Origin: a bacterium
Lineage (GTDB): Bacteria; Patescibacteriota; Microgenomatia; UBA10105; UBA927
Length of the DNA: 64,000 bases
Reading direction: 5' to 3'
Assembly: GCA_021817785.1 (NCBI GenBank)
Contig: JAKAFY010000003.1
Span: forward strand, 4,376-68,375
The notes under the pieces were generated by a model. That model was not told the DNA's origin and made no database searches. It saw only the letters and a list, made by a program, of their open reading frames with translations. The position numbers were made by a program, and so were the translations under genes. Shown in pieces: positions 3,357 through 60,737 of this stretch. Each line of letters begins with the position of its first letter. The first letter of the stretch is position 1.

Positions 3357-4534
3357 TTTTTTAAATACTGTTTGCCTTTGAGCTTGTCCGGTAGCAGACT
3401 GTCGTTGCCGTATGCGTGGTATCCTTTTCCATAGTCCAGTTCCTTCATCAGTTTTGTCGGTGCGTTTCTGATGATAAGCGGTATAGGAAGGTTCCCGTGC
3501 TTTTTTACGTCGTCTACTGCCGCAAAGTATGCATCATAGGCACTCCGGTCTTTTTTCGCAAGGGACAGATACGCGACCCCGTGGGCTAAATTTTCCTGGC
3601 ACTCGGGATAGCCGATTTTGTTACACGCATCAAACACTGCGTTGGCAACGACCAGTGCGGTAGGTTGCGCGAGCCCTATGTCTTCACTGGCAAACACTAC
3701 CATACGCCGCGCGATAAACAACGGATCTTCACCGGCTGCTACCATACGCGCCAGATAGTAGAGTGCCGCATCAGGGTCGCTTGCCCGCATGCTTTTGATG
3801 AACGCGCTGATCGTATTGTAGTGTTCCTCCCCTGTGCGGTCGTACTGGAGCATTTTCCGCTGGGCTGCTTCTTCTACATCTGCTGCCGTAAGCTTTTTGC
3901 TTTTCGTGAGGGTTGCCGCTATTTCGAGTGTCGTCAGTAACGCACGCGCATCTCCGTTGGCTATTTCAAAAAGAAATTGCGCTCCCTCTTTGTCTATCGT
4001 TTTTTTGATATAGCCGAGTCCTCGTTGCATGATCTCTTCGAGTTCGGATTGTTCCAACGGCTTTAACACCAGTACCCTACATCGGGATAACAGCGGGGAT
4101 ATGACCTCAAATGACGGGTTTTCTGTGGTGGCACCGATAAAAATCACCGTCCCGTGCTCGACTGCCGGAAGCAGCGCGTCCTGCTGGGCTTTATTAAACC
4201 GGTGGATTTCGTCGATAAACAGGATCGTCCGTTTGCCGTCTCGGGTCGTCCGTTCCTCCGCTTCATGGATGACGCGGCGTACATCCGATAACGTAGACGT
4301 TACCGCTGAATGGGATTCAAAATAACTGTCGGTGAGGGTTGCCAGAAGTTCCGCGAGCGTCGTCTTGCCGCATCCCGGGGGTCCCCACAAAACCAGCGAC
4401 GGCAAAAATCCGGACGCGAGCAGTTTACGGACAATGCCCTGGTCCCCGACAAGGTGCGTTTGTCCTACGACATCGTCTAAGGACGCGGGACGAAGTATAT
4501 CGGCAAGCGGACGGCTGCTTCTTCTGTCTGTCAT
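3353..4534 (-). CDS. rarA: replication-associated recombination protein A (AAA+ ATPase RarA/MgsA)
   Basis: Walker A GPPGCGKTTLA, Walker B ILFIDEIHRFNK, MgsA C-terminal helical domain. Confidence 0.9.
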   Translation of the reverse strand: MTDRRSSRPLADILRPASLDDVVGQTHLVGDQGIVRKLLASGFLPSLVLWGPPGCGKTTLAELLATLTDSYFESHSAVTSTLSDVRRVIHEAEERTTRDGKRTILFIDEIHRFNKAQQDALLPAVEHGTVIFIGATTENPSFEVISPLLSRCRVLVLKPLEQSELEEIMQRGLGYIKKTIDKEGAQFLFEIANGDARALLTTLEIAATLTKSKKLTAADVEEAAQRKMLQYDRTGEEHYNTISAFIKSMRASDPDAALYYLARMVAAGEDPLFIARRMVVFASEDIGLAQPTALVVANAVFDACNKIGYPECQENLAHGVAYLSLAKKDRSAYDAYFAAVDDVKKHGNLPIPLIIRNAPTKLMKELDYGKGYHAYGNDSLLPDKLKGKQYLKK

Positions 4535-4578
4535 CGCTGGTATTTTACCATGCCCGGCAATGCGCCGCCGCCCATGAT

Positions 4579-4593
4579 CAACCCCAGGGGTTG
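4579..4593. repeat. REP-like palindromic unit CAACCCCAGGGGTTG (copy 1 of 5)
   Basis: Exact 15-mer in the rarA-metK intergenic gap; same unit as the copies around the RAYT gene. Confidence 0.7.
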
Positions 4594-4597
4594 AAAA

Positions 4598-5713
4598 CTA
4601 TGAGACAATTTTTTCCCAGGGAAAGCCGGTGCGCCCAAAGTGGCCGTAACGCGCCGTTTCTCGATAGATGGGCCGTCGGAGATTCAATCCTTTTAAAATC
4701 CCCGGCATGGAAAGATCCAGGAGTGACCAGGCGAACGCTTCGATGTCTGCCAATGGCTTTTTTTCCGTGCCAAACGTCTCTATGGCTTTCGCCAACGGCT
4801 CGCGTTGGCCGATGACGTATGCCACCCGTACTTCCGCTCTATCAGCAAGCCCTTTGGCCACTATGTTTTTGGCGATATAGCGGGCAGCATACGCACCGCT
4901 CCGGTCGACTTTGGTGGGGTCTTTACCGGAAAATGCGCCGCCGCCGTGCCGCGCAAACGCGCCATAGGTATCCACAATGATTTTTCTGCCGGTGACACCG
5001 GTATCGGATGCGGGACCGCCGATGGCCCATTTCCCTTTACTACCATTGACGATAACGTTTTCTATGGGTGGAGCTTTCATGTTATATTTCTTCAACACCG
5101 GCTTGACCACTTTTTCGTACAGAGCGACTTTTAATTTCTCGTTGGTCATAGTGGTGTCGTATGGCACGGCCAGCACGATCCGATCTACCGCCACCGGCTT
5201 GTCATTTTCGTAGATTACTTTTACTTCGCTTTTGCCGTCTGGACGCAAAAACGGGAGAATTTTTTTCTCCCGCGCTTCATCCATACGCTCTACCAGACGA
5301 TGGGCCAAAACTAATGGCAGCGGCATATACTCCGGCGTTTCATTGGTGGCGTACCCGAACATCATACCCTGGTCGCCTGCCCCACCGTCATCTACACCCA
5401 CGGCAATATCGGGAGACTGCTGGTGGATGTAGACCGAAATCGGTGATTTATCCGTAAAGTTGTAGATCGACTTGGTGTATCCTAACGACTTGATCGTTTT
5501 CCGGGCGATCACCTCATAATCCAGCTTTTTCTTGCAGGTGACTTCTCCGGCCAACACGATGCGGTTGGTCGTCACCAACGTTTCAACTGCTACACGAGCC
5601 ATGGGGTCTGCCGCAAGCGCCGCGTCTACGATGGCATCGGAAATCTGGTCGCAAATTTTGTCGGGATGGCCGGAAGCTACGGATTCGGATGTAAAATGGG
5701 TGAGTTTTTTCAT
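4598..5713 (-). CDS. metK: S-adenosylmethionine synthetase
   Basis: GHPDKICDQISDAI and other MetK signatures; start placed at ATG (MKKLTHF) preceded by AAGGAGGG RBS. The ORF track extends upstream to a GTG at 5761. Confidence 0.95.
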   Translation of the reverse strand: MKKLTHFTSESVASGHPDKICDQISDAIVDAALAADPMARVAVETLVTTNRIVLAGEVTCKKKLDYEVIARKTIKSLGYTKSIYNFTDKSPISVYIHQQSPDIAVGVDDGGAGDQGMMFGYATNETPEYMPLPLVLAHRLVERMDEAREKKILPFLRPDGKSEVKVIYENDKPVAVDRIVLAVPYDTTMTNEKLKVALYEKVVKPVLKKYNMKAPPIENVIVNGSKGKWAIGGPASDTGVTGRKIIVDTYGAFARHGGGAFSGKDPTKVDRSGAYAARYIAKNIVAKGLADRAEVRVAYVIGQREPLAKAIETFGTEKKPLADIEAFAWSLLDLSMPGILKGLNLRRPIYRETARYGHFGRTGFPWEKIVS

Positions 5714-5732
5714 ATGTTTCCCTCCTTTGGGG

Positions 5733-5826
5733 CAAATCTCAGCCAAAGGCTGATTGTGCACCGTGGTCCGCCTATGGCGGAATCGGTTGCTGGATGTCCG
5801 AGTATATAGGACATCACTCTTGATTT
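5733..5826 (-). ncRNA. candidate SAM riboswitch (SAM-I / SAM-I-IV-like) in the metK 5' leader
   Basis: Minus-strand leader reads AAAUCAAGAGUG-[GAUGUCC..GGACAUC hairpin]-CCAGCAACC-[GAUUCCGCC..GGCGGA hairpin]-GGUGCACAAUC-[AGCC UUUG GCU]-GAGAUUU. It has the SAM-I junction signatures (AUCAAGAG, GCAACC, GGUGC), a P1 closure AAAUC/GAUUU and a 4-helix layout. CCUUUGG in P4 can alternatively pair with CCAAAGG overlapping the AAAGGAGG RBS. The P2 kink-turn is absent, as in SAM-IV. Confidence 0.4.
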
Positions 5827-5837
5827 ATAATTTATCT

Positions 5838-5867
5838 ACATTACTCTGGAAAACTTCTTCGTGTCAA
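5838..5867 (-). promoter_or_regulatory. sigma70-like promoter for metK leader (TTGACA-18-TAATGT)
   Basis: Minus strand reads TTGACAcgaagaagttttccagagTAATGT about 10 nt upstream of the proposed riboswitch 5' end. Confidence 0.35.
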
Positions 5868-6167
5868 GAAGGTAAAATGCCCCGCATGACTCCTGCAATT
5901 GAGGCGGAAAAGATATGTGTTGCACCGTAGAGGTATACTTTCTTTGTATATGCCATTTGCTGACGGCCATGTCGTTAACGCACAAGGAACCCCTGTTGAA
6001 ACAACCGGTGAGGCAATTGCACAAGCACGAGCAGAACGGCCAAGAATCATTTTAGTTCGAGATGGCAAAGGCGTATACAGACTTCCAAAATCAGAACGAG
6101 ACGCGCCTGGGTGTTTGTCTCTACTTTTCCGTTTTGGCCCTTTTGGTCGCAAAGAAAAATAACACAT

Positions 6168-6182
6168 CAACCCCAGGGGTTG
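6168..6182. repeat. REP unit CAACCCCAGGGGTTG (copy 2)
   Basis: Exact copy 90 bp upstream of the RAYT gene. Confidence 0.7.
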
Positions 6183-6243
6183 CACGCCTTGCTATTGTTA
6201 TATATCGTACTGACATATGAAGCTAACAGGTGTAGACTCATAT

Positions 6244-6258
6244 CAACCCCAGGGGTTG
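6244..6258. repeat. REP unit CAACCCCAGGGGTTG (copy 3)
   Basis: Exact copy 14 bp upstream of the RAYT start. Confidence 0.7.
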
Positions 6259-6271
6259 GCTACTATAAGCT

Positions 6272-6901
6272 ATGAGCACGCCGGTTCGATATATTCAGAC
6301 AAACGTACCGTATCATATTTATAATCGGGGCAATCGTAAGTCCGAAATATTCCTGCATCAAAAAGATTATCTGCGATTCCTTGATCACATACGGGAGTAT
6401 AAGCAGCAATATAATGTGCGGATCTATTGCTACTGCCTGATGTCGAACCATTTTCATTTGCTCGCTTCATCCTCCGAAGAATCCGGGCTTACTACTTTTA
6501 TGCTTCGTCTGTCCACGAGTCACGCTAAATACTTCAACATGAAATATCACATGGTAGGCAGGCTGTTCCAAGAGCGTTTCCGCGCCAAGCCAGTTGAGTC
6601 CGACGAATATTTCCTCCATCTTTCCCGGTATATACACTTAAATCCCGTATCCGATGATATCGAAACGCTCACCGCGTTATATACAAAGCCATATGAAGAA
6701 TCCAGCAACGTACGAGCAGCACTTCTGGAATACCCCTGGTCTTCGTATCACGAGTATCGCACGGAATCAGCGGATATATGCGATATACACACCATACTGA
6801 ACTATTTTTCAAAAACACATGCCAATCTCTCGTACACCAATTTCGTCGAATCGAGTATTCCTTCTGAATCCAGCCCTATAGTTAGCAACCCCTGGGGTTG
6901 A
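6272..6901 (+). mobile_element. REP-associated tyrosine transposase (RAYT), IS200/IS605-like Y1 HUH transposase
   Basis: 209 aa; YHIYNRGNRK, HUH motif YCLMSNHFHLL, downstream catalytic Tyr region (YIHLNP); flanked by inverted REP units. The last 5 codons (SNPWG) are encoded by a REP copy. Confidence 0.75.
6886..6900. repeat. REP unit, inverted orientation CAACCCCTGGGGTTG (copy 4)
   Basis: Overlaps the RAYT 3' end. Confidence 0.7.
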
Positions 6902-6937
6902 AATGGATAGTTTGAGATATTTTTATGGCTGGGAAAT

Positions 6938-8275
6938 TCAACCCCTGGGGTTGAGAGGAGTGAAGCCGGCTTTGCCGAAGGCGATGCGGTCGAGGACCCG
7001 CTGTTCCATGTCGAGCATCCGGCCTGGAGTGACGACGAAATTGCCAAACCGATCCGATACCCGGTCTATGGCCGCCGTAAGGCTGCGTTTTTTGTCGTCT
7101 TCCGGAAGAAGCGACAATTGTGCCGCTTCCCGCTCCAGATGATAACTATAGATAGCCAGTATGCGCACGGGATTTTCCGGAGCGGCAGCAAGCATGCGGC
7201 GGTACCATTGGTAAAAGTCCATATCCGCGTAGAGGGCAGCAGACAGTTTTTGCTGCGTATGCCAGTGGGTGTGATCGGCAAACAATAACGATATCCCCAC
7301 TCCGGATGCCGTGCAGCCGTCGTCCCGGAGGCGTTTGCCCATTTTCATGGTAAGCTGCGAAAGAATCTGCCACAGCCGGGGATCTGTCGCTGTATACGAT
7401 TTTGGCAACGCATACGACTGACCGAAGCTCTTCTGAAGCTCTTCCTTTTCATCAAATGTCTTGTACATCACGCCGTCTTCCCACCCGTGAAGCCTCTGCC
7501 ACCAGTGATACCCCACGATCGAATGAAACGCCCGCCCTAACGCTTCCTGCGACGCAGAGAGCATCGCCAACGGCGTGGCTATACCGCCATAGCGCAACCT
7601 GGTTGCGTTTCCTTCCTTGATGCCGCATAAATCTTCCAGCTTGAGTGTGCTAAATACGTCTTCTATGGTTTCCCGGGTGATCCACCGCAGCCCGTCCGGC
7701 TTTTCTAGCCCGGATGCGACTTTGGCCAGATACCGGTTGGGGGCTATCCCTATGGACACCGTAAGCCAGTCTCCGATTTCATCCCGGATGCGTTGCTTTA
7801 TGTCCCTGCCGATGTCCTGCATGGCTGGAATTGTTTTCTGAATCATGAATTCAGAATCAGGAATTATGGGAATATTGTTTCTATATTTTTTTAGACTTCG
7901 ATAGAGCGCTGGCGTATTTTTTACATCCAGCACCATTTCATCGATGGATTCCACGCTGAGCGCATCGGTGTAGCTTCCCAAAAGTGCCGTGAGCTGGTGG
8001 TTGACCAGCCGGTATTTGTCGGGATCCGGCGGCAGAATTATTAACCGGGGATACATAAACTGCCCTTCACGCACGGACATACCGGTTTTGATCCCCAGAC
8101 GTTTGGCTTCTTTGGACGCAGCTAATATGCAGCCGTTGCCCGTAGCATACGCCGCAACGACCAGGGGTTTCCCGCGAAACAACGGATTGGCCTGCTGTTC
8201 TACCGTGGCAAAACAGGAATTCAAATCCACATGCATGACGGTCGGAGGTGCAGGGTTAAATTTCATAATTTTCAA
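6938..8275 (-). CDS. dinB: Y-family DNA polymerase IV
   Basis: MHVDLNSCFATVEQ catalytic N-terminus, UmuC/DinB palm-finger layout, little-finger domain. Confidence 0.9.
   Translation of the reverse strand: MKIMKFNPAPPTVMHVDLNSCFATVEQQANPLFRGKPLVVAAYATGNGCILAASKEAKRLGIKTGMSVREGQFMYPRLIILPPDPDKYRLVNHQLTALLGSYTDALSVESIDEMVLDVKNTPALYRSLKKYRNNIPIIPDSEFMIQKTIPAMQDIGRDIKQRIRDEIGDWLTVSIGIAPNRYLAKVASGLEKPDGLRWITRETIEDVFSTLKLEDLCGIKEGNATRLRYGGIATPLAMLSASQEALGRAFHSIVGYHWWQRLHGWEDGVMYKTFDEKEELQKSFGQSYALPKSYTATDPRLWQILSQLTMKMGKRLRDDGCTASGVGISLLFADHTHWHTQQKLSAALYADMDFYQWYRRMLAAAPENPVRILAIYSYHLEREAAQLSLLPEDDKKRSLTAAIDRVSDRFGNFVVTPGRMLDMEQRVLDRIAFGKAGFTPLNPRG
6939..6953. repeat. REP unit, inverted orientation (copy 5)
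   Basis: Overlaps the dinB stop codon; the dinB C-terminal residues LNPRG are REP-encoded. Confidence 0.7.
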
Positions 8276-43185: not shown

Positions 43186-43330
43186 TAAGTTCGTAAAGTT
43201 CATAAAGTTCGTAAAGTGAAAAAGTTCATAAAGTTCATAAAGTTCGTAAAGTTTATAAAGTTCATAAAGTGAAAAGGTTCATAAAGTTCGTAAAGTGAAA
43301 AAGTTCGTAATGTTTATAACGTTTGTAAAG
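43186..43330. repeat. 9-bp tandem repeat array A (about 16 units of AAGTTCRTA with interspersed AAGTGAAA)
   Basis: aagttcgtaaagttcataaagttcgtaaagtgaaaaagttcataaagttcataaagttcgtaaagtttataaagttcataaagtgaaaaggttcataaagttcgtaaagtgaaaaagttcgtaatgtttataacgtttgtaaag between atpA and atpG. Confidence 0.9.
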
Positions 43331-51968: not shown

Positions 51969-52062
51969 AATAGTTTGTAAAGTTGAAAGTGTATAAAGTT
52001 TGTAACGTAATTACTTTATGAACTTTCGAACTTTATGAACTTTTTAACTTTTTTTCGCCCAT
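51969..52062. repeat. 9-bp tandem repeat array B (forward units then inverted units)
   Basis: agtttgtaaagttgaaagtgtataaagtttgtaacg | ttactttatgaactttcgaactttatgaactttttaacttttttt; overlaps the last codons and stop of gatA. Confidence 0.85.
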
Positions 52063-56383: not shown

Positions 56384-56583
56384 TACTTTATAAACTTTCT
56401 AACTTTATGAACTTTACGAACTTTATGAACTTTCTCACTTTATAAACTTTATGAACTTTCCAACTTTATAAACTTTATGAACTTTTCACTTTTTCCCCTT
56501 CTCACTTTATAAACTTTCCAACTTTATAAACTTTATGAACTTTCTAACTTTATAAACTTTACGAACTTTCTCACTTTACGAAC
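56384..56583. repeat. 9-bp tandem repeat array D (about 22 units ACTTTATRA / ACTTTCYMA)
   Basis: tactttataaactttctaactttatgaactttacgaactttatgaactttctcactttataaactttatgaactttccaactttataaactttatgaacttttcactttttccccttctcactttataaactttccaactttataaactttatgaactttctaactttataaactttacgaactttctcactttacgaac. Confidence 0.9.
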
Positions 56584-57900
56584 TTATAATATCTTCTTCC
56601 CCGTGAGTATTTCCCGTATATCGAGCATCGCGGAGTACGTCGGCAGCACATACAGCGTTTGCCCTTTCGGAACTCGGGCCAGCGCATCCGTCACGGCCAT
56701 CATGAGGTTTGGTTCGATATCCATGCGTTTTGTATCTACCCCGGCGTATTTTAACCGCAGCGCCATATCGTACACGCGGTCACCGCTTACCGTAACGCGC
56801 ACGGATTTCGGAAGCGTTTCAAAATCCACATCCCAAATCCAGCTTACATCCCGGCCGTCCGGTATACGATCGTTTAATGCAAACAGAAAATACTGTCCCC
56901 GTTGTTCGATGACGGTGCGAAGCGATGCGTTAAACCCGGCCGGATTTTTGGAAAGAAATATTTTGACGGTCCTGCCGTCCATCACGATTTCTTCCTGTCT
57001 GCCGAATGCGGGTTTAAATGATTTCAGGGCGTGGGCTATATCCGTATCTCGGACGGACAACGATCCAGCCACGGCTACGGCAGCCAGCGTATTGTACTGG
57101 TTATAGAGCCCCGGCAATGGATTCGGCCAGGCAGACACGGATGGCACCGGCCGCGTATACCCGCACGCCGGACACGTCCACAAACCCAAGTGAGAAAAAT
57201 AGATGCCGTCGTAACGCAGTCTGTTGCCGCATTTCGGGCAAAAGGTCGAGTCGGTCGCATGCTCGGCTACGTTCAAAAATTTTGTCTTATCTTGGACGCC
57301 AAAGTATATGACGGTTCCCGGCACGGATTTACCCAGATATGCCACACCCGGATCATCGGCGTTTATGATGACCTGGGTTTCTTTCGGAAGCGCGGCAAAT
57401 GCCTTTTCCCATTTTTCTATGATCACGTCTACCTCACCATAGCGGTCCAGCTGATCACGAAAAAGATTCAGAACCACGATCCGCGAGGGTTTCATGTATC
57501 GGAGCACGATCGGCAGCGAATTTTCATCGACTTCAAAAATTCCGACGTCGGCGGTGATCCTCCCCAAAAAATCCGCGTGGCGGATAAACGAAGACACCAC
57601 GCCGTTTAACAAATTGGCTCCCGTGGCGTTATGGATGACGACGTCTCCCACGTGTTCCAAAATAGTCTTCAGCATAAGCGACGTAGTGGTTTTCCCGTTC
57701 GTACCGACCACGAGGATGACGCCTTTTTGAAATTCTTTGGCAAGCGACGCTGCAATATGCGGCCGCAGAGTGAGGGCGATTTCTCCCGGCCACGTGGCGC
57801 CGGCACCCAAATGGAATGTGGTACTTACAAACGAAACAAATTTTGAAAGAATGACAACGAGGCGGTCAATCAAATCCATATCCGTATTATCGCGCAACAT
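56584..57900 (-). CDS. murT: lipid II isoglutaminyl synthase, Mur-ligase-like subunit
   Basis: VVGTNGKTTTS P-loop, Cys4 ribbon CPKCG...CPACG, C-terminal DUF1727-like region; start uncertain (ATGs at 57900 and 57879; the ORF extends to 57990). Confidence 0.85.
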   Translation of the reverse strand: MLRDNTDMDLIDRLVVILSKFVSFVSTTFHLGAGATWPGEIALTLRPHIAASLAKEFQKGVILVVGTNGKTTTSLMLKTILEHVGDVVIHNATGANLLNGVVSSFIRHADFLGRITADVGIFEVDENSLPIVLRYMKPSRIVVLNLFRDQLDRYGEVDVIIEKWEKAFAALPKETQVIINADDPGVAYLGKSVPGTVIYFGVQDKTKFLNVAEHATDSTFCPKCGNRLRYDGIYFSHLGLWTCPACGYTRPVPSVSAWPNPLPGLYNQYNTLAAVAVAGSLSVRDTDIAHALKSFKPAFGRQEEIVMDGRTVKIFLSKNPAGFNASLRTVIEQRGQYFLFALNDRIPDGRDVSWIWDVDFETLPKSVRVTVSGDRVYDMALRLKYAGVDTKRMDIEPNLMMAVTDALARVPKGQTLYVLPTYSAMLDIREILTGKKIL

Positions 57901-60663: not shown

Positions 60664-60737
60664 TTGAAAGTTTATAAAGTTTCAAGTTTTTAACCTTATG
60701 AACTTTATGAACTTTATGAACTTTCGAACTTATTATG
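60664..60737. repeat. 9-bp tandem repeat array E (forward then inverted units)
   Basis: ttgaaagtttataaagtttcaagtttttaaccttatgaactttatgaactttatgaactttcgaacttattatg; encodes the polX C-terminus KFESS*. Confidence 0.85.

Follow-up and report, generated by a model that had tools for sequence, protein, structure and literature searches.

We describe here a small locus in a 64,000-nucleotide stretch of DNA from a Patescibacteriota assembly (GCA_021817785.1, contig JAKAFY010000003.1; the whole stretch is called the window below), in which a gene for a putative Y1 nuclease of the HUH family lies among short hairpin palindromes. The arrangement recalls that of the REP-associated tyrosine transposases (RAYTs, or TnpA-REP proteins) with their flanking repetitive extragenic palindromes (REPs), the so-called REPtron, a concept reportedly set out in work of Nunvar (2010), Bertels and Rainey (2011) and Ton-Hoang (2012). 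The Y1 gene (6272..6901, forward strand) encodes 209 amino acids with a Pfam Y1_Tnp match of 47.6 bits, and it converges, across a gap of 36 nt, on dinB, the gene for DNA polymerase IV (6938..8275, reverse strand; Pfam IMS and IMS_C).

The palindromic unit CAACCCCWGGGGTTG occurs in the window in five exact copies, at 4579, 6168, 6244, 6886 and 6939, with a central A in the first three and a central T in the last two; with its flanks, the full unit is a palindrome of 17–19 nt, (C/T)TCAACCCCWGGGGTTGA(G/A). Two copies precede the Y1 gene on the forward strand. The distal one (TCAACCCCAGGGGTTGC, 6167..6183) forms a hairpin with a computed ΔG of -4.8 kcal/mol, and the proximal one (TCAACCCCAGGGGTTGG, 6243..6259) lies 13 nt ahead of the ATG, just past a promoter-like site at 6210–6238 (a consensus match only). 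The right flank of the proximal unit, GCTACTATA, extends its likeness to the 6886 unit into a 29-nt inverted repeat (6239–6267 and 6877–6905, 86% complementary). Two further copies, on the reverse strand, lie downstream: the proximal one (6885..6901) encodes the last codons of the Y1 gene, NPWG, and its TGA stop (6887–6901), and the distal one (6938..6954), a perfect 17-nt palindrome, encodes LNPRG and the TGA stop of dinB. The fifth, a satellite copy (4578..4594, forward strand) that is again a perfect 17-nt palindrome, lies 4 nt past the metK stop, within the 63 nt that separate this stop from the start of rarA. A sequence-only reading of this DNA had described two units upstream, two inverted units downstream and a fifth at 4579, with the units forming the 3′ ends of both convergent genes, and this description holds in every part.

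When the 64 kb were searched de novo for hairpin palindromes (stem of at least 6, loop of at most 5), none but CAACCCCWGGGGTTG proved to recur. The expected number of copies by chance is 0.12, and none of 100 dinucleotide shuffles reached five. All five units are confined to 2.4 kb; the remaining ~60 kb of the window has none, and no sixth copy was found in the window even when 2–3 mismatches were allowed. As single-stranded DNA, one unit is predicted to fold into a stem of 6–7 bp with a 3-nt loop (ΔG -4.8 to -6.1 kcal/mol), and two adjacent units can pair with each other in a stem of 15–16 bp with one central mismatch (ΔG about -16 kcal/mol, z -4.8). Rfam at the gathering threshold found four tRNAs and nothing else in the whole window, and a permissive scan of 5600–7100 found only a SAM-I/IV leader of metK, so that the palindromes belong to no known RNA family. 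We also considered a CRISPR-like or tandem array and rejected it, as the units are palindromic and irregularly spaced.

The protein carries the HUH motif as N59-H60-F61-H62 (in NHFHLL), the catalytic tyrosine motif as Y120-IHLNP and a WSS tail at 156–158, in agreement with its first description as a 209-residue HUH/Y1 homologue with an HFHLL motif. In an alignment of 26 homologues (35–78% identity), H60, H62, Y120, I121, H122, N124, P125, S157 and S158 are invariant, and the catalytic apparatus is therefore under selection. Several comparisons point to the same structural relative, 4ER8, the structure of the Escherichia coli TnpA-REP protein (yafM). A single-sequence search of the PDB was weak (4ER8, E 0.41), but a profile built from the 26-homologue alignment gave 4ER8 as its best match (E 2.7e-4, positions 6–150), with the TnpA of ISDra2 at E ~1e-3 over positions 41–93 only. 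An AlphaFold (AF2) model of the protein has a mean predicted confidence (pLDDT) of 85.9, with residues 135–141 below 50. In a Foldseek search with this model, 4er8_A again ranked first (E 9.6e-7, 183 columns, TM 0.66 on the target), and the TnpA proteins of IS608 and ISDra2 followed at E 1.6e-5 or weaker, over the 112–130 columns of the core alone. Pfam detected Y1_Tnp only in the protein, and no C-terminal helix-turn-helix domain (Bac_DnaA_C, HTH_23/28). Class 2 of the TnpA-Y1 proteins, on the TnpA-REP side, is defined by the motif Y---NP, and IS200 transposases carry Y---Q instead (Quentin et al. 2018, PMC6006769). By motif, profile and fold match, then, the gene is judged to encode a RAYT-like Y1/HUH nuclease rather than a canonical IS200 TnpA. 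Some proteins of the family are in fact already named “RayT” in Joint Genome Institute annotation.

The locus can be followed across considerable divergence. The exact Y1 protein is present in six assemblies (L001–L006, including GCA_027424485.1 and GCA_027341155.1). An orthologue of 59% identity (L007–L010 and L092) has the same HAD-PGM-NUDIX-rarA-metK-Y1-dinB surroundings, on contigs as long as ~1 Mb, and a syntenic orthologue at this identity is found in Candidatus Gottesmanbacteria UBA5942 as well, which bears out the impression that the DNA comes from a reduced-genome lineage. An orthologue of 61% identity in GCA_040960215.1 (L011) again lies between metK and dinB. The Y1 gene has thus kept its metK/dinB slot across deep divergence. 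Further named homologues occur in Gottesmanbacteria, Microgenomates and Portnoybacteria, so that the source of the window is a Patescibacteria genome resembling those of Gottesmanbacteria. Among lineages, the clade occupies at least three distinct loci: metK/dinB, beside glyS-recO, and beside gyrB.

What is conserved within this slot is the palindrome more than the DNA around it. In L008/L092 the DNA outside the palindrome has diverged, yet TCAACCCCAGGGGTTGAGGTCAG occurs there twice, both times with a central A, once 98 nt 5′ of the Y1 start and once over the dinB stop (where dinB ends LNPWG). Units 4579, 6168 and 6886 have no counterpart in the syntenic L008; the rarA-metK spacer of L008 is only 9 nt long and lacks the 4579 unit, which therefore represents a gain/loss polymorphism. 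L011 carries a copy upstream, a variant TGACCCCAGGGGTCA just 5′ of the ATG, a copy inside the open reading frame that encodes STPGVE, a copy over the dinB stop and another 6.6 kb away; the position over the dinB stop is thus kept in L008/L092 and L011 alike. In L012 (57% identity, other neighbours), there is a copy upstream, a variant in the open reading frame and a copy at its 3′ end. Related loci have two to five copies each, so that number and position vary from locus to locus, and the core of 15–17 nt is perfectly conserved. The copies also enter the proteins. TPGV, which the palindrome encodes in frame 1, is found in 34 of the 120 closest homologues, mostly 10–23 residues past the catalytic tyrosine motif; the equivalent part of the window protein is the poorly predicted segment 135–141 (pLDDT below 50). 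No internal copy is found in the window protein or in P0002, its closest homologue (78% identity), and both end instead in NPWG, which is palindrome frame 3; P0009 and P0004 have different C termini, with the stop 2 nt ahead of the common palindrome.

These comparisons bear directly on the possibility that the unit from 6168 to 6953 is an autonomous IS200-like insertion sequence (IS), whose gene encodes a self-moving transposase and whose palindromes are the subterminal hairpins of its left and right ends. Its length (~790 bp) is that of an IS200, hairpins lie at regular short distances from start and stop throughout the family, the predicted fold also matches the core of IS608 and ISDra2 TnpA, and the clade occurs at the several loci named above. 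Moreover, the flanking copies are in direct orientation in L008, L012 and L063, as are IS200/IS605 ends. In the window and in L011, however, they are inverted. A self-moving element would also sit poorly with the occupation of one metK-dinB slot by orthologues of only 59–61% identity, and no identical second copy is found in the 64 kb or at any locus studied; the sole paralogue seen in the window and L001 is 40% identical and has another palindrome, and no near-identical duplicate is found there. The tyrosine motif is the class-2 Y---NP and not the IS200-type Y---Q, and tnpB is absent from the locus. Finally, solitary palindromes far from any Y1 gene and within other genes, described below, are not predicted for an IS that mobilises itself. 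An IS200-like element therefore seems quite unlikely for the window, but direct orientation and the variety of loci keep this reading alive for the past of the family.

Across the family, the palindrome co-varies with the lineage of the protein. We drew an unbiased sample of 80 metagenome loci by protein similarity alone, 79 of which had usable flanks. A word of at least 11 nt is common to the upstream and downstream flanks in 64 of the 79, compared with 4.4 for shuffled flanks and 6 for mismatched pairs of loci. These words are short hairpin palindromes and vary by lineage (GATTCCCGGAATC, AAGACCTGGTCTT, CGACTCCCGGAGTCG, ACACCTCCGAGGTGT, AAGGTCAGACCTT and CAAGGTTCGGAACCTTG among them), and they lie 30–100 nt ahead of the start and 4–34 nt past the stop or over it. 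A third copy, 7–18 residues past the tyrosine motif, is present in five lineages, each with a palindrome of its own; other loci have a copy near the N terminus, and a few have copies 1–8 kb away. In this sample, the window palindrome (at up to 2 mismatches) accompanies only the three closest homologues (47–53% identity), in each case upstream, internally and downstream, and it was not found in 601 kb around the other 77 loci.

The same rule applies within one genome. A second Y1 paralogue lies just outside the start of the window, ~9.5 kb 5′ of the RAYT-like gene (L001, 1–630, in region 1–660). It is 40% identical, carries YIHRNP and matches Pfam Y1_Tnp at 31 bits, and its own 23-nt palindrome, CCTACGAGGAGAGTCCTCGTAGG, occurs twice in frame within the open reading frame and once right past the stop. 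CCTACGAGGAGAGTCCTCGTAGG contains a CTAC...GTAG “double foot” and has no match in the window at up to 3 mismatches. Because each nuclease lineage across the sample has a private palindrome, protein and palindrome co-evolve, which is the signature of a REPtron.

The palindrome of the window also occurs away from any such gene. We scanned a species-representative genome collection (596 Gb) for the exact 16-mer TCAACCCCAGGGGTTG, which returned at least 118 stretches; counts per genome are lower bounds. Among the matches listed, 31 of the 118 lie in metagenome-assembled genomes labelled as Patescibacteria (Gottesman-, Levy-, Davies-, Blackburn-, Shapiro- and Woykebacteria, Microgenomates, Saccharibacteria and “Patescibacteria group”), and the rest are single matches scattered across all phyla. 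Chance alone would give ~280 matches in 596 Gb. If Patescibacteria make up 1–2% of the bases, as we estimate, their enrichment among the matches listed is at least tenfold. For most of the listed Patescibacteria copies, the 8-kb block that contains them lacks a Y1 homologue, and one metagenome-assembled genome has copies on at least four contigs. The motif is thus not limited to the window but is present in many Patescibacteria genomes, solitary copies included.

It could be argued that so short a unit recurs by accident, or through faulty assembly: it has only 15–17 nt and is GC-rich, and exact single matches are strewn over many unrelated taxa. Those other matches, however, lack the flank complementarity of the Patescibacteria copies. 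Among the listed matches, the first outer pair is Watson-Crick in 72% of Patescibacteria copies but in 37% of those from elsewhere, and for the second pair the figures are 53% and 32%, with both T-A and C-G occurring. Together with the excess over expectation and over shuffles in the window, the identical layout in six independent assemblies and the recurrence of the same palindrome at the same positions in diverged orthologous loci, this refutes chance or artefact, to which we give practically no weight.

Several of the solitary copies lie in frame within housekeeping genes that Pfam identifies. As STPGVE the palindrome is found in RecF, RecJ, FolD and Dcd, and as QPQGL(T/S) in Ddl, the CCA-adding enzyme and an M24 peptidase; in a third form, SNPRG and a stop, it ends a 499-residue protein for which Pfam gave a single, weak match, to PEP-utilizers_C (20.9 bits, cutoff 22.8). 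The RecF insert of Gottesmanbacteria lies in the loop between GPHRDD and FGSRGEQR, and the site is polymorphic among close orthologues: of the 60 closest, 7 have STPGVE and 1 has STPGIE, and the others differ, some being palindrome-like. Presence/absence polymorphism of in-frame solitary copies, together with the differences in copy number between syntenic relatives, indicates that copies are gained at new sites.

Three side observations concern these copies. The RecF loop past GPHRDD is hypervariable in Gottesmanbacteria orthologues P0121–P0180 (60–77% identity), and its other inserts, such as SNAPRPPL..RGGEGEL and repeated RIKN/ELRIKN, resemble translated palindromic or tandem DNA, which suggests that several small repeat families may target the same loop. 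The N-terminal domain of the M24 Xaa-Pro peptidase includes an in-frame inverted doublet, CAACCCCAGGGGTTG-ACGCACNN-AACCCCTGGGGTT (QPQGLT..TPGVLG); this pair, REPIN/BIME-like but within coding sequence, is conserved in four genomes (L029 at ~1850–1900, L071 at ~5000–5060, and also L015 and L123). Lastly, the palindrome is present in contigs labelled Gammaproteobacteria or Pseudomonadales (L015, L079, L123, L125, L056, L063, L086 and L128), some of which have flanks identical to Levybacteria or Blackburnbacteria loci or lie beside Y1 homologues of 31–49% identity. These bins may carry a wrong label or include contaminating contigs from Patescibacteria; alternatively, the module is not confined to the candidate phyla radiation.

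A different explanation for much of the above is that the palindromes are not mobile DNA but cis-regulatory sites, either operators or hairpins at the 5′ and 3′ ends of mRNAs, to which the Y1 protein or a factor of the host binds, with those of the neighbours being structures at transcript ends, and that the Y1 protein is a fully domesticated DNA- or RNA-binding factor. The copies cluster around the gene and keep conserved distances from it, the promoter-like site directly precedes the proximal upstream unit, metK, the Y1 gene and dinB each have a unit at the 3′ end, and adjacent units can pair in the long stem noted above. The internal copy occupies the same linker in five lineages with a different sequence in each, and there is no sign of recent movement among the six assemblies. 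An invariant HUH/tyrosine set would, however, be needless for mere binding, and in-frame, polymorphic solitary copies in housekeeping genes, as well as copy numbers that differ between syntenic relatives, speak for the gain of copies at new sites. The hairpins also lack a T-tract, and terminator-like matches are not enriched over shuffles (6 in 4400–7200 versus 3.5 ± 1.8); for these two reasons we have dropped the earlier proposal that the junction of the Y1 gene and dinB acts as a bidirectional terminator. It is possible that the units serve as stabilising 3′ hairpins. As a full account of the locus, cis-regulation seems rather unlikely to us, but it is compatible, as an added role and not as a replacement, with a REPtron-like system.

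We therefore consider it probable that the locus is REPtron-like, that is, a chromosomally fixed, vertically inherited, single-copy gene for a RAYT-like HUH/Y1 nuclease of single-stranded DNA, accompanied by its cognate hairpin palindrome. On the model of E. coli TnpA-REP and IS608, this protein would bind the hairpin, with its stem of 6–7 bp and loop of 3 nt, when it is extruded in single-stranded DNA, for example in the lagging-strand template. It would then cut and religate beside the hairpin, by way of the HUH metal site and a 5′-phosphotyrosine link to Tyr120. Such cutting and rejoining could spread, homogenise or lose copies, mostly in cis, around and within the protein's own gene, and occasional copies would land elsewhere, at the 3′ ends of genes or, in frame, in loops of proteins that tolerate them. 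Since spacer DNA is scarce in such a genome, gene ends and tolerant loops would be where copies survive. Specificity of the protein and sequence of the palindrome would change together, giving each lineage a private palindrome in the same upstream, internal and downstream layout. We speculate, further, that the proximal upstream unit and the internal copy of relatives could allow the protein to sense or regulate its own gene.

Several observations weigh against this interpretation. First, the steps of the mechanism are carried over from E. coli TnpA-REP and IS608. Second, the regular distances of the palindromes from start and stop would fit cis-regulatory sites or IS ends as well, and the flanking copies are not uniformly inverted, being direct in the three loci named above. 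Third, gene order and five-unit layout are identical in six of six independent assemblies (L001–L006), so there has been no recent movement. The system has very few copies here, nothing points to recent activity, and it may be quiescent in this species. Fourth, copy number is far lower than that of classical REPs; a 770-kb Daviesbacteria contig has one exact copy, and this copy adjoins a Y1 gene of 33% identity. Fifth, the window unit has no 5′ GT[AG]G foot, and the flanks of 47 Patescibacteria copies show only palindrome extensions, T/A and (C/T)/(G/A), and no GT[AG]G. Sixth, the only NCBIfam match of the protein, to the RAYT equivalog NF047646 (REP_Tyr_transpos), scores 53.0 bits against a cutoff of 80. 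The system thus works like a REPtron but departs from classical REP/RAYT systems in three respects: the GT[AG]G foot, high copy number and the NCBIfam cutoff. Of the sequence-only proposal of a RAYT/REP system, the RAYT-like gene with cognate inverted palindromes stands, and a classical, high-copy, extragenic REP family does not.

A few other features of the window may be mentioned. Ahead of metK, on the reverse strand, lies a SAM-I/IV riboswitch-like leader (5704–5831; 38.2 bits versus an Rfam gathering threshold of 41.1, E 3.3e-4), whose conserved blocks are visible in L008 and L011 too and whose position implies that metK starts at the ATG near 5713 (371 residues) and not at the GTG at 5761. 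Between this leader or promoter and the first unit are ~335 nt in which no gene is called (5832–6167), and the corresponding spacer is much shorter in L008 and L011. Small open reading frames there (5899–6162, forward; 5841–6185, reverse) had no Pfam match and were treated as non-coding. Intergenic arrays of a 9-nt unit, ACTTTATGA, ACTTTATAA or ACTTTACGA (reverse complement TCATAAAGT), lie at four places, 43187–43323, 52013–52052, 56385–56585 and 60692–60724, with up to 23 tandem copies and higher-order periods of 17, 26 and 84 nt; these arrays are not related to the palindrome.

For a domesticated transposase that keeps up a population of short repeats in bacterial genomes, RAYT/REP systems offer the best example. 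To our knowledge, their characterisation has been confined almost entirely to Proteobacteria, Cyanobacteria and Bacteroidetes, and our full-text search of the literature available to us found no paper in which the candidate phyla radiation, Patescibacteria or Microgenomates are linked with RAYTs or REPs. The present observations place the logic of a gene with its cognate hairpin in ultra-small Patescibacteria genomes that have almost no intergenic space. There the few repeats border on coding sequence or intrude into it, supplying stop codons, adding loops of six residues to repair and metabolic enzymes and, in relatives, entering the nuclease gene itself. The chief interest of the system lies in its lineage-specific upstream, internal and downstream layout, in the presence of one palindrome across several candidate phyla and in the in-frame inserts in housekeeping genes of minimal genomes. 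For the question of how Y1 nucleases read hairpins, at least 60 natural pairs of protein and palindrome become available.

More tentatively, a broader picture can be drawn, which we regard as plausible but doubtful. The candidate phyla radiation may carry a large undescribed family of Y1 nucleases resembling subclass 2.1, each with a private hairpin palindrome of 13–19 nt that is kept at three positions in cis (the 5′ leader, the disordered linker past the catalytic tyrosine and the region of the stop codon) and that is, on rare occasions, sown as in-frame inserts of ~18 nt into loops of housekeeping proteins (RecF, RecJ, FolD, Ddl, CCA-adding enzyme, Dcd) and into gene ends. Such an element would be live, self-targeting and able to remodel proteins, and TCAACCCCWGGGGTTGA would be common to several Microgenomates lineages and Saccharibacteria.

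Compared with known systems, the locus is closest in its overall design to the REPtron. It has a HUH/Y1 protein with the class-2 Y---NP and its best profile and fold match in 4ER8; the gene is probably single-copy and chromosomally fixed, with at least two flanking cognate hairpin palindromes, inverted in the window; each paralogue and lineage has its own palindrome; and palindromes lie at the 3′ ends of genes, where they can supply stops. In-frame intragenic REPs, and REP termini that supply stop codons, are known in other phyla (Di Nocera et al. 2013, PMC3733652), as are REPs within tnpA-REP genes (PMC6006769). Differences from the REPtron, besides the missing foot and a score below the equivalog cutoff, are the unit itself, a short perfect palindrome of 15–17 nt with a 3-nt loop, the few copies per genome in place of the tens to hundreds of classical REPs, and a host in the candidate phyla radiation. 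The REP-associated subclasses, further, have W-Q/E where the window protein has F99-Q100.

This last feature points to another group. The second motif variant of subclass 2.1 is NH[YF]H, FQ replacing W[EQ], Y[IV]HLNP and an SS tail (Table 1, PMC6006769), and N59-H-F-H62, F99-Q100, Y120-IHLNP and S157-S158 of the window protein match it; by motifs, rather than by phylogeny, the protein may be assigned to this subclass, which is equivalent to group 1 of Bertels and to the TIRYT/TIRtron (PMC6006769; PMC3733652). Low-abundance flanking repeats are a further likeness to TIRtrons, some of whose repeats are self-complementary. In contrast to subclass 2.1 as reported, in which no REP-like hairpins were found nearby (PMC6006769), hairpin palindromes are the rule here (64 of 79 loci), so that hairpin repeats are now linked to a protein subclass said to have none. 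Moreover, GGGGTTGA does not fit the TIR consensus GGGGWSAS, the flanks here being self-complementary hairpin units, and the protein differs from the subclass in having no C-terminal helix-turn-helix domain that Pfam detects and in its length of 209 residues versus a median of 238.

Other systems share single features. As in subclass 2.4 (Bertels group 4), the cognate palindrome lies in frame within the nuclease gene of many relatives, but the recurrent site here is the low-confidence linker 7–23 residues past the tyrosine motif, with some copies near the N terminus, the motifs differ (WQ and YIxNNP in 2.4), and the window gene itself has no internal copy. With the TnpA proteins of IS200/IS605 elements (IS608, ISDra2), the protein shares the HUH/Y1 core fold and, presumably, subterminal hairpins in single-stranded DNA as substrate; Y---Q, the lack of a C-terminal tail, multiple near-identical copies and a frequent tnpB are features of those elements not seen here. 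Finally, short palindromic inserts in frame in housekeeping genes, notably those of replication and repair (RecF, RecJ and the tail of DinB), resemble the Rickettsia palindromic elements and intragenic REPs (Di Nocera 2013). In contrast to the former, which measure ~100–150 bp, the insert here is only ~18 nt, or six codons, and it is tied to an identifiable cognate Y1 gene.

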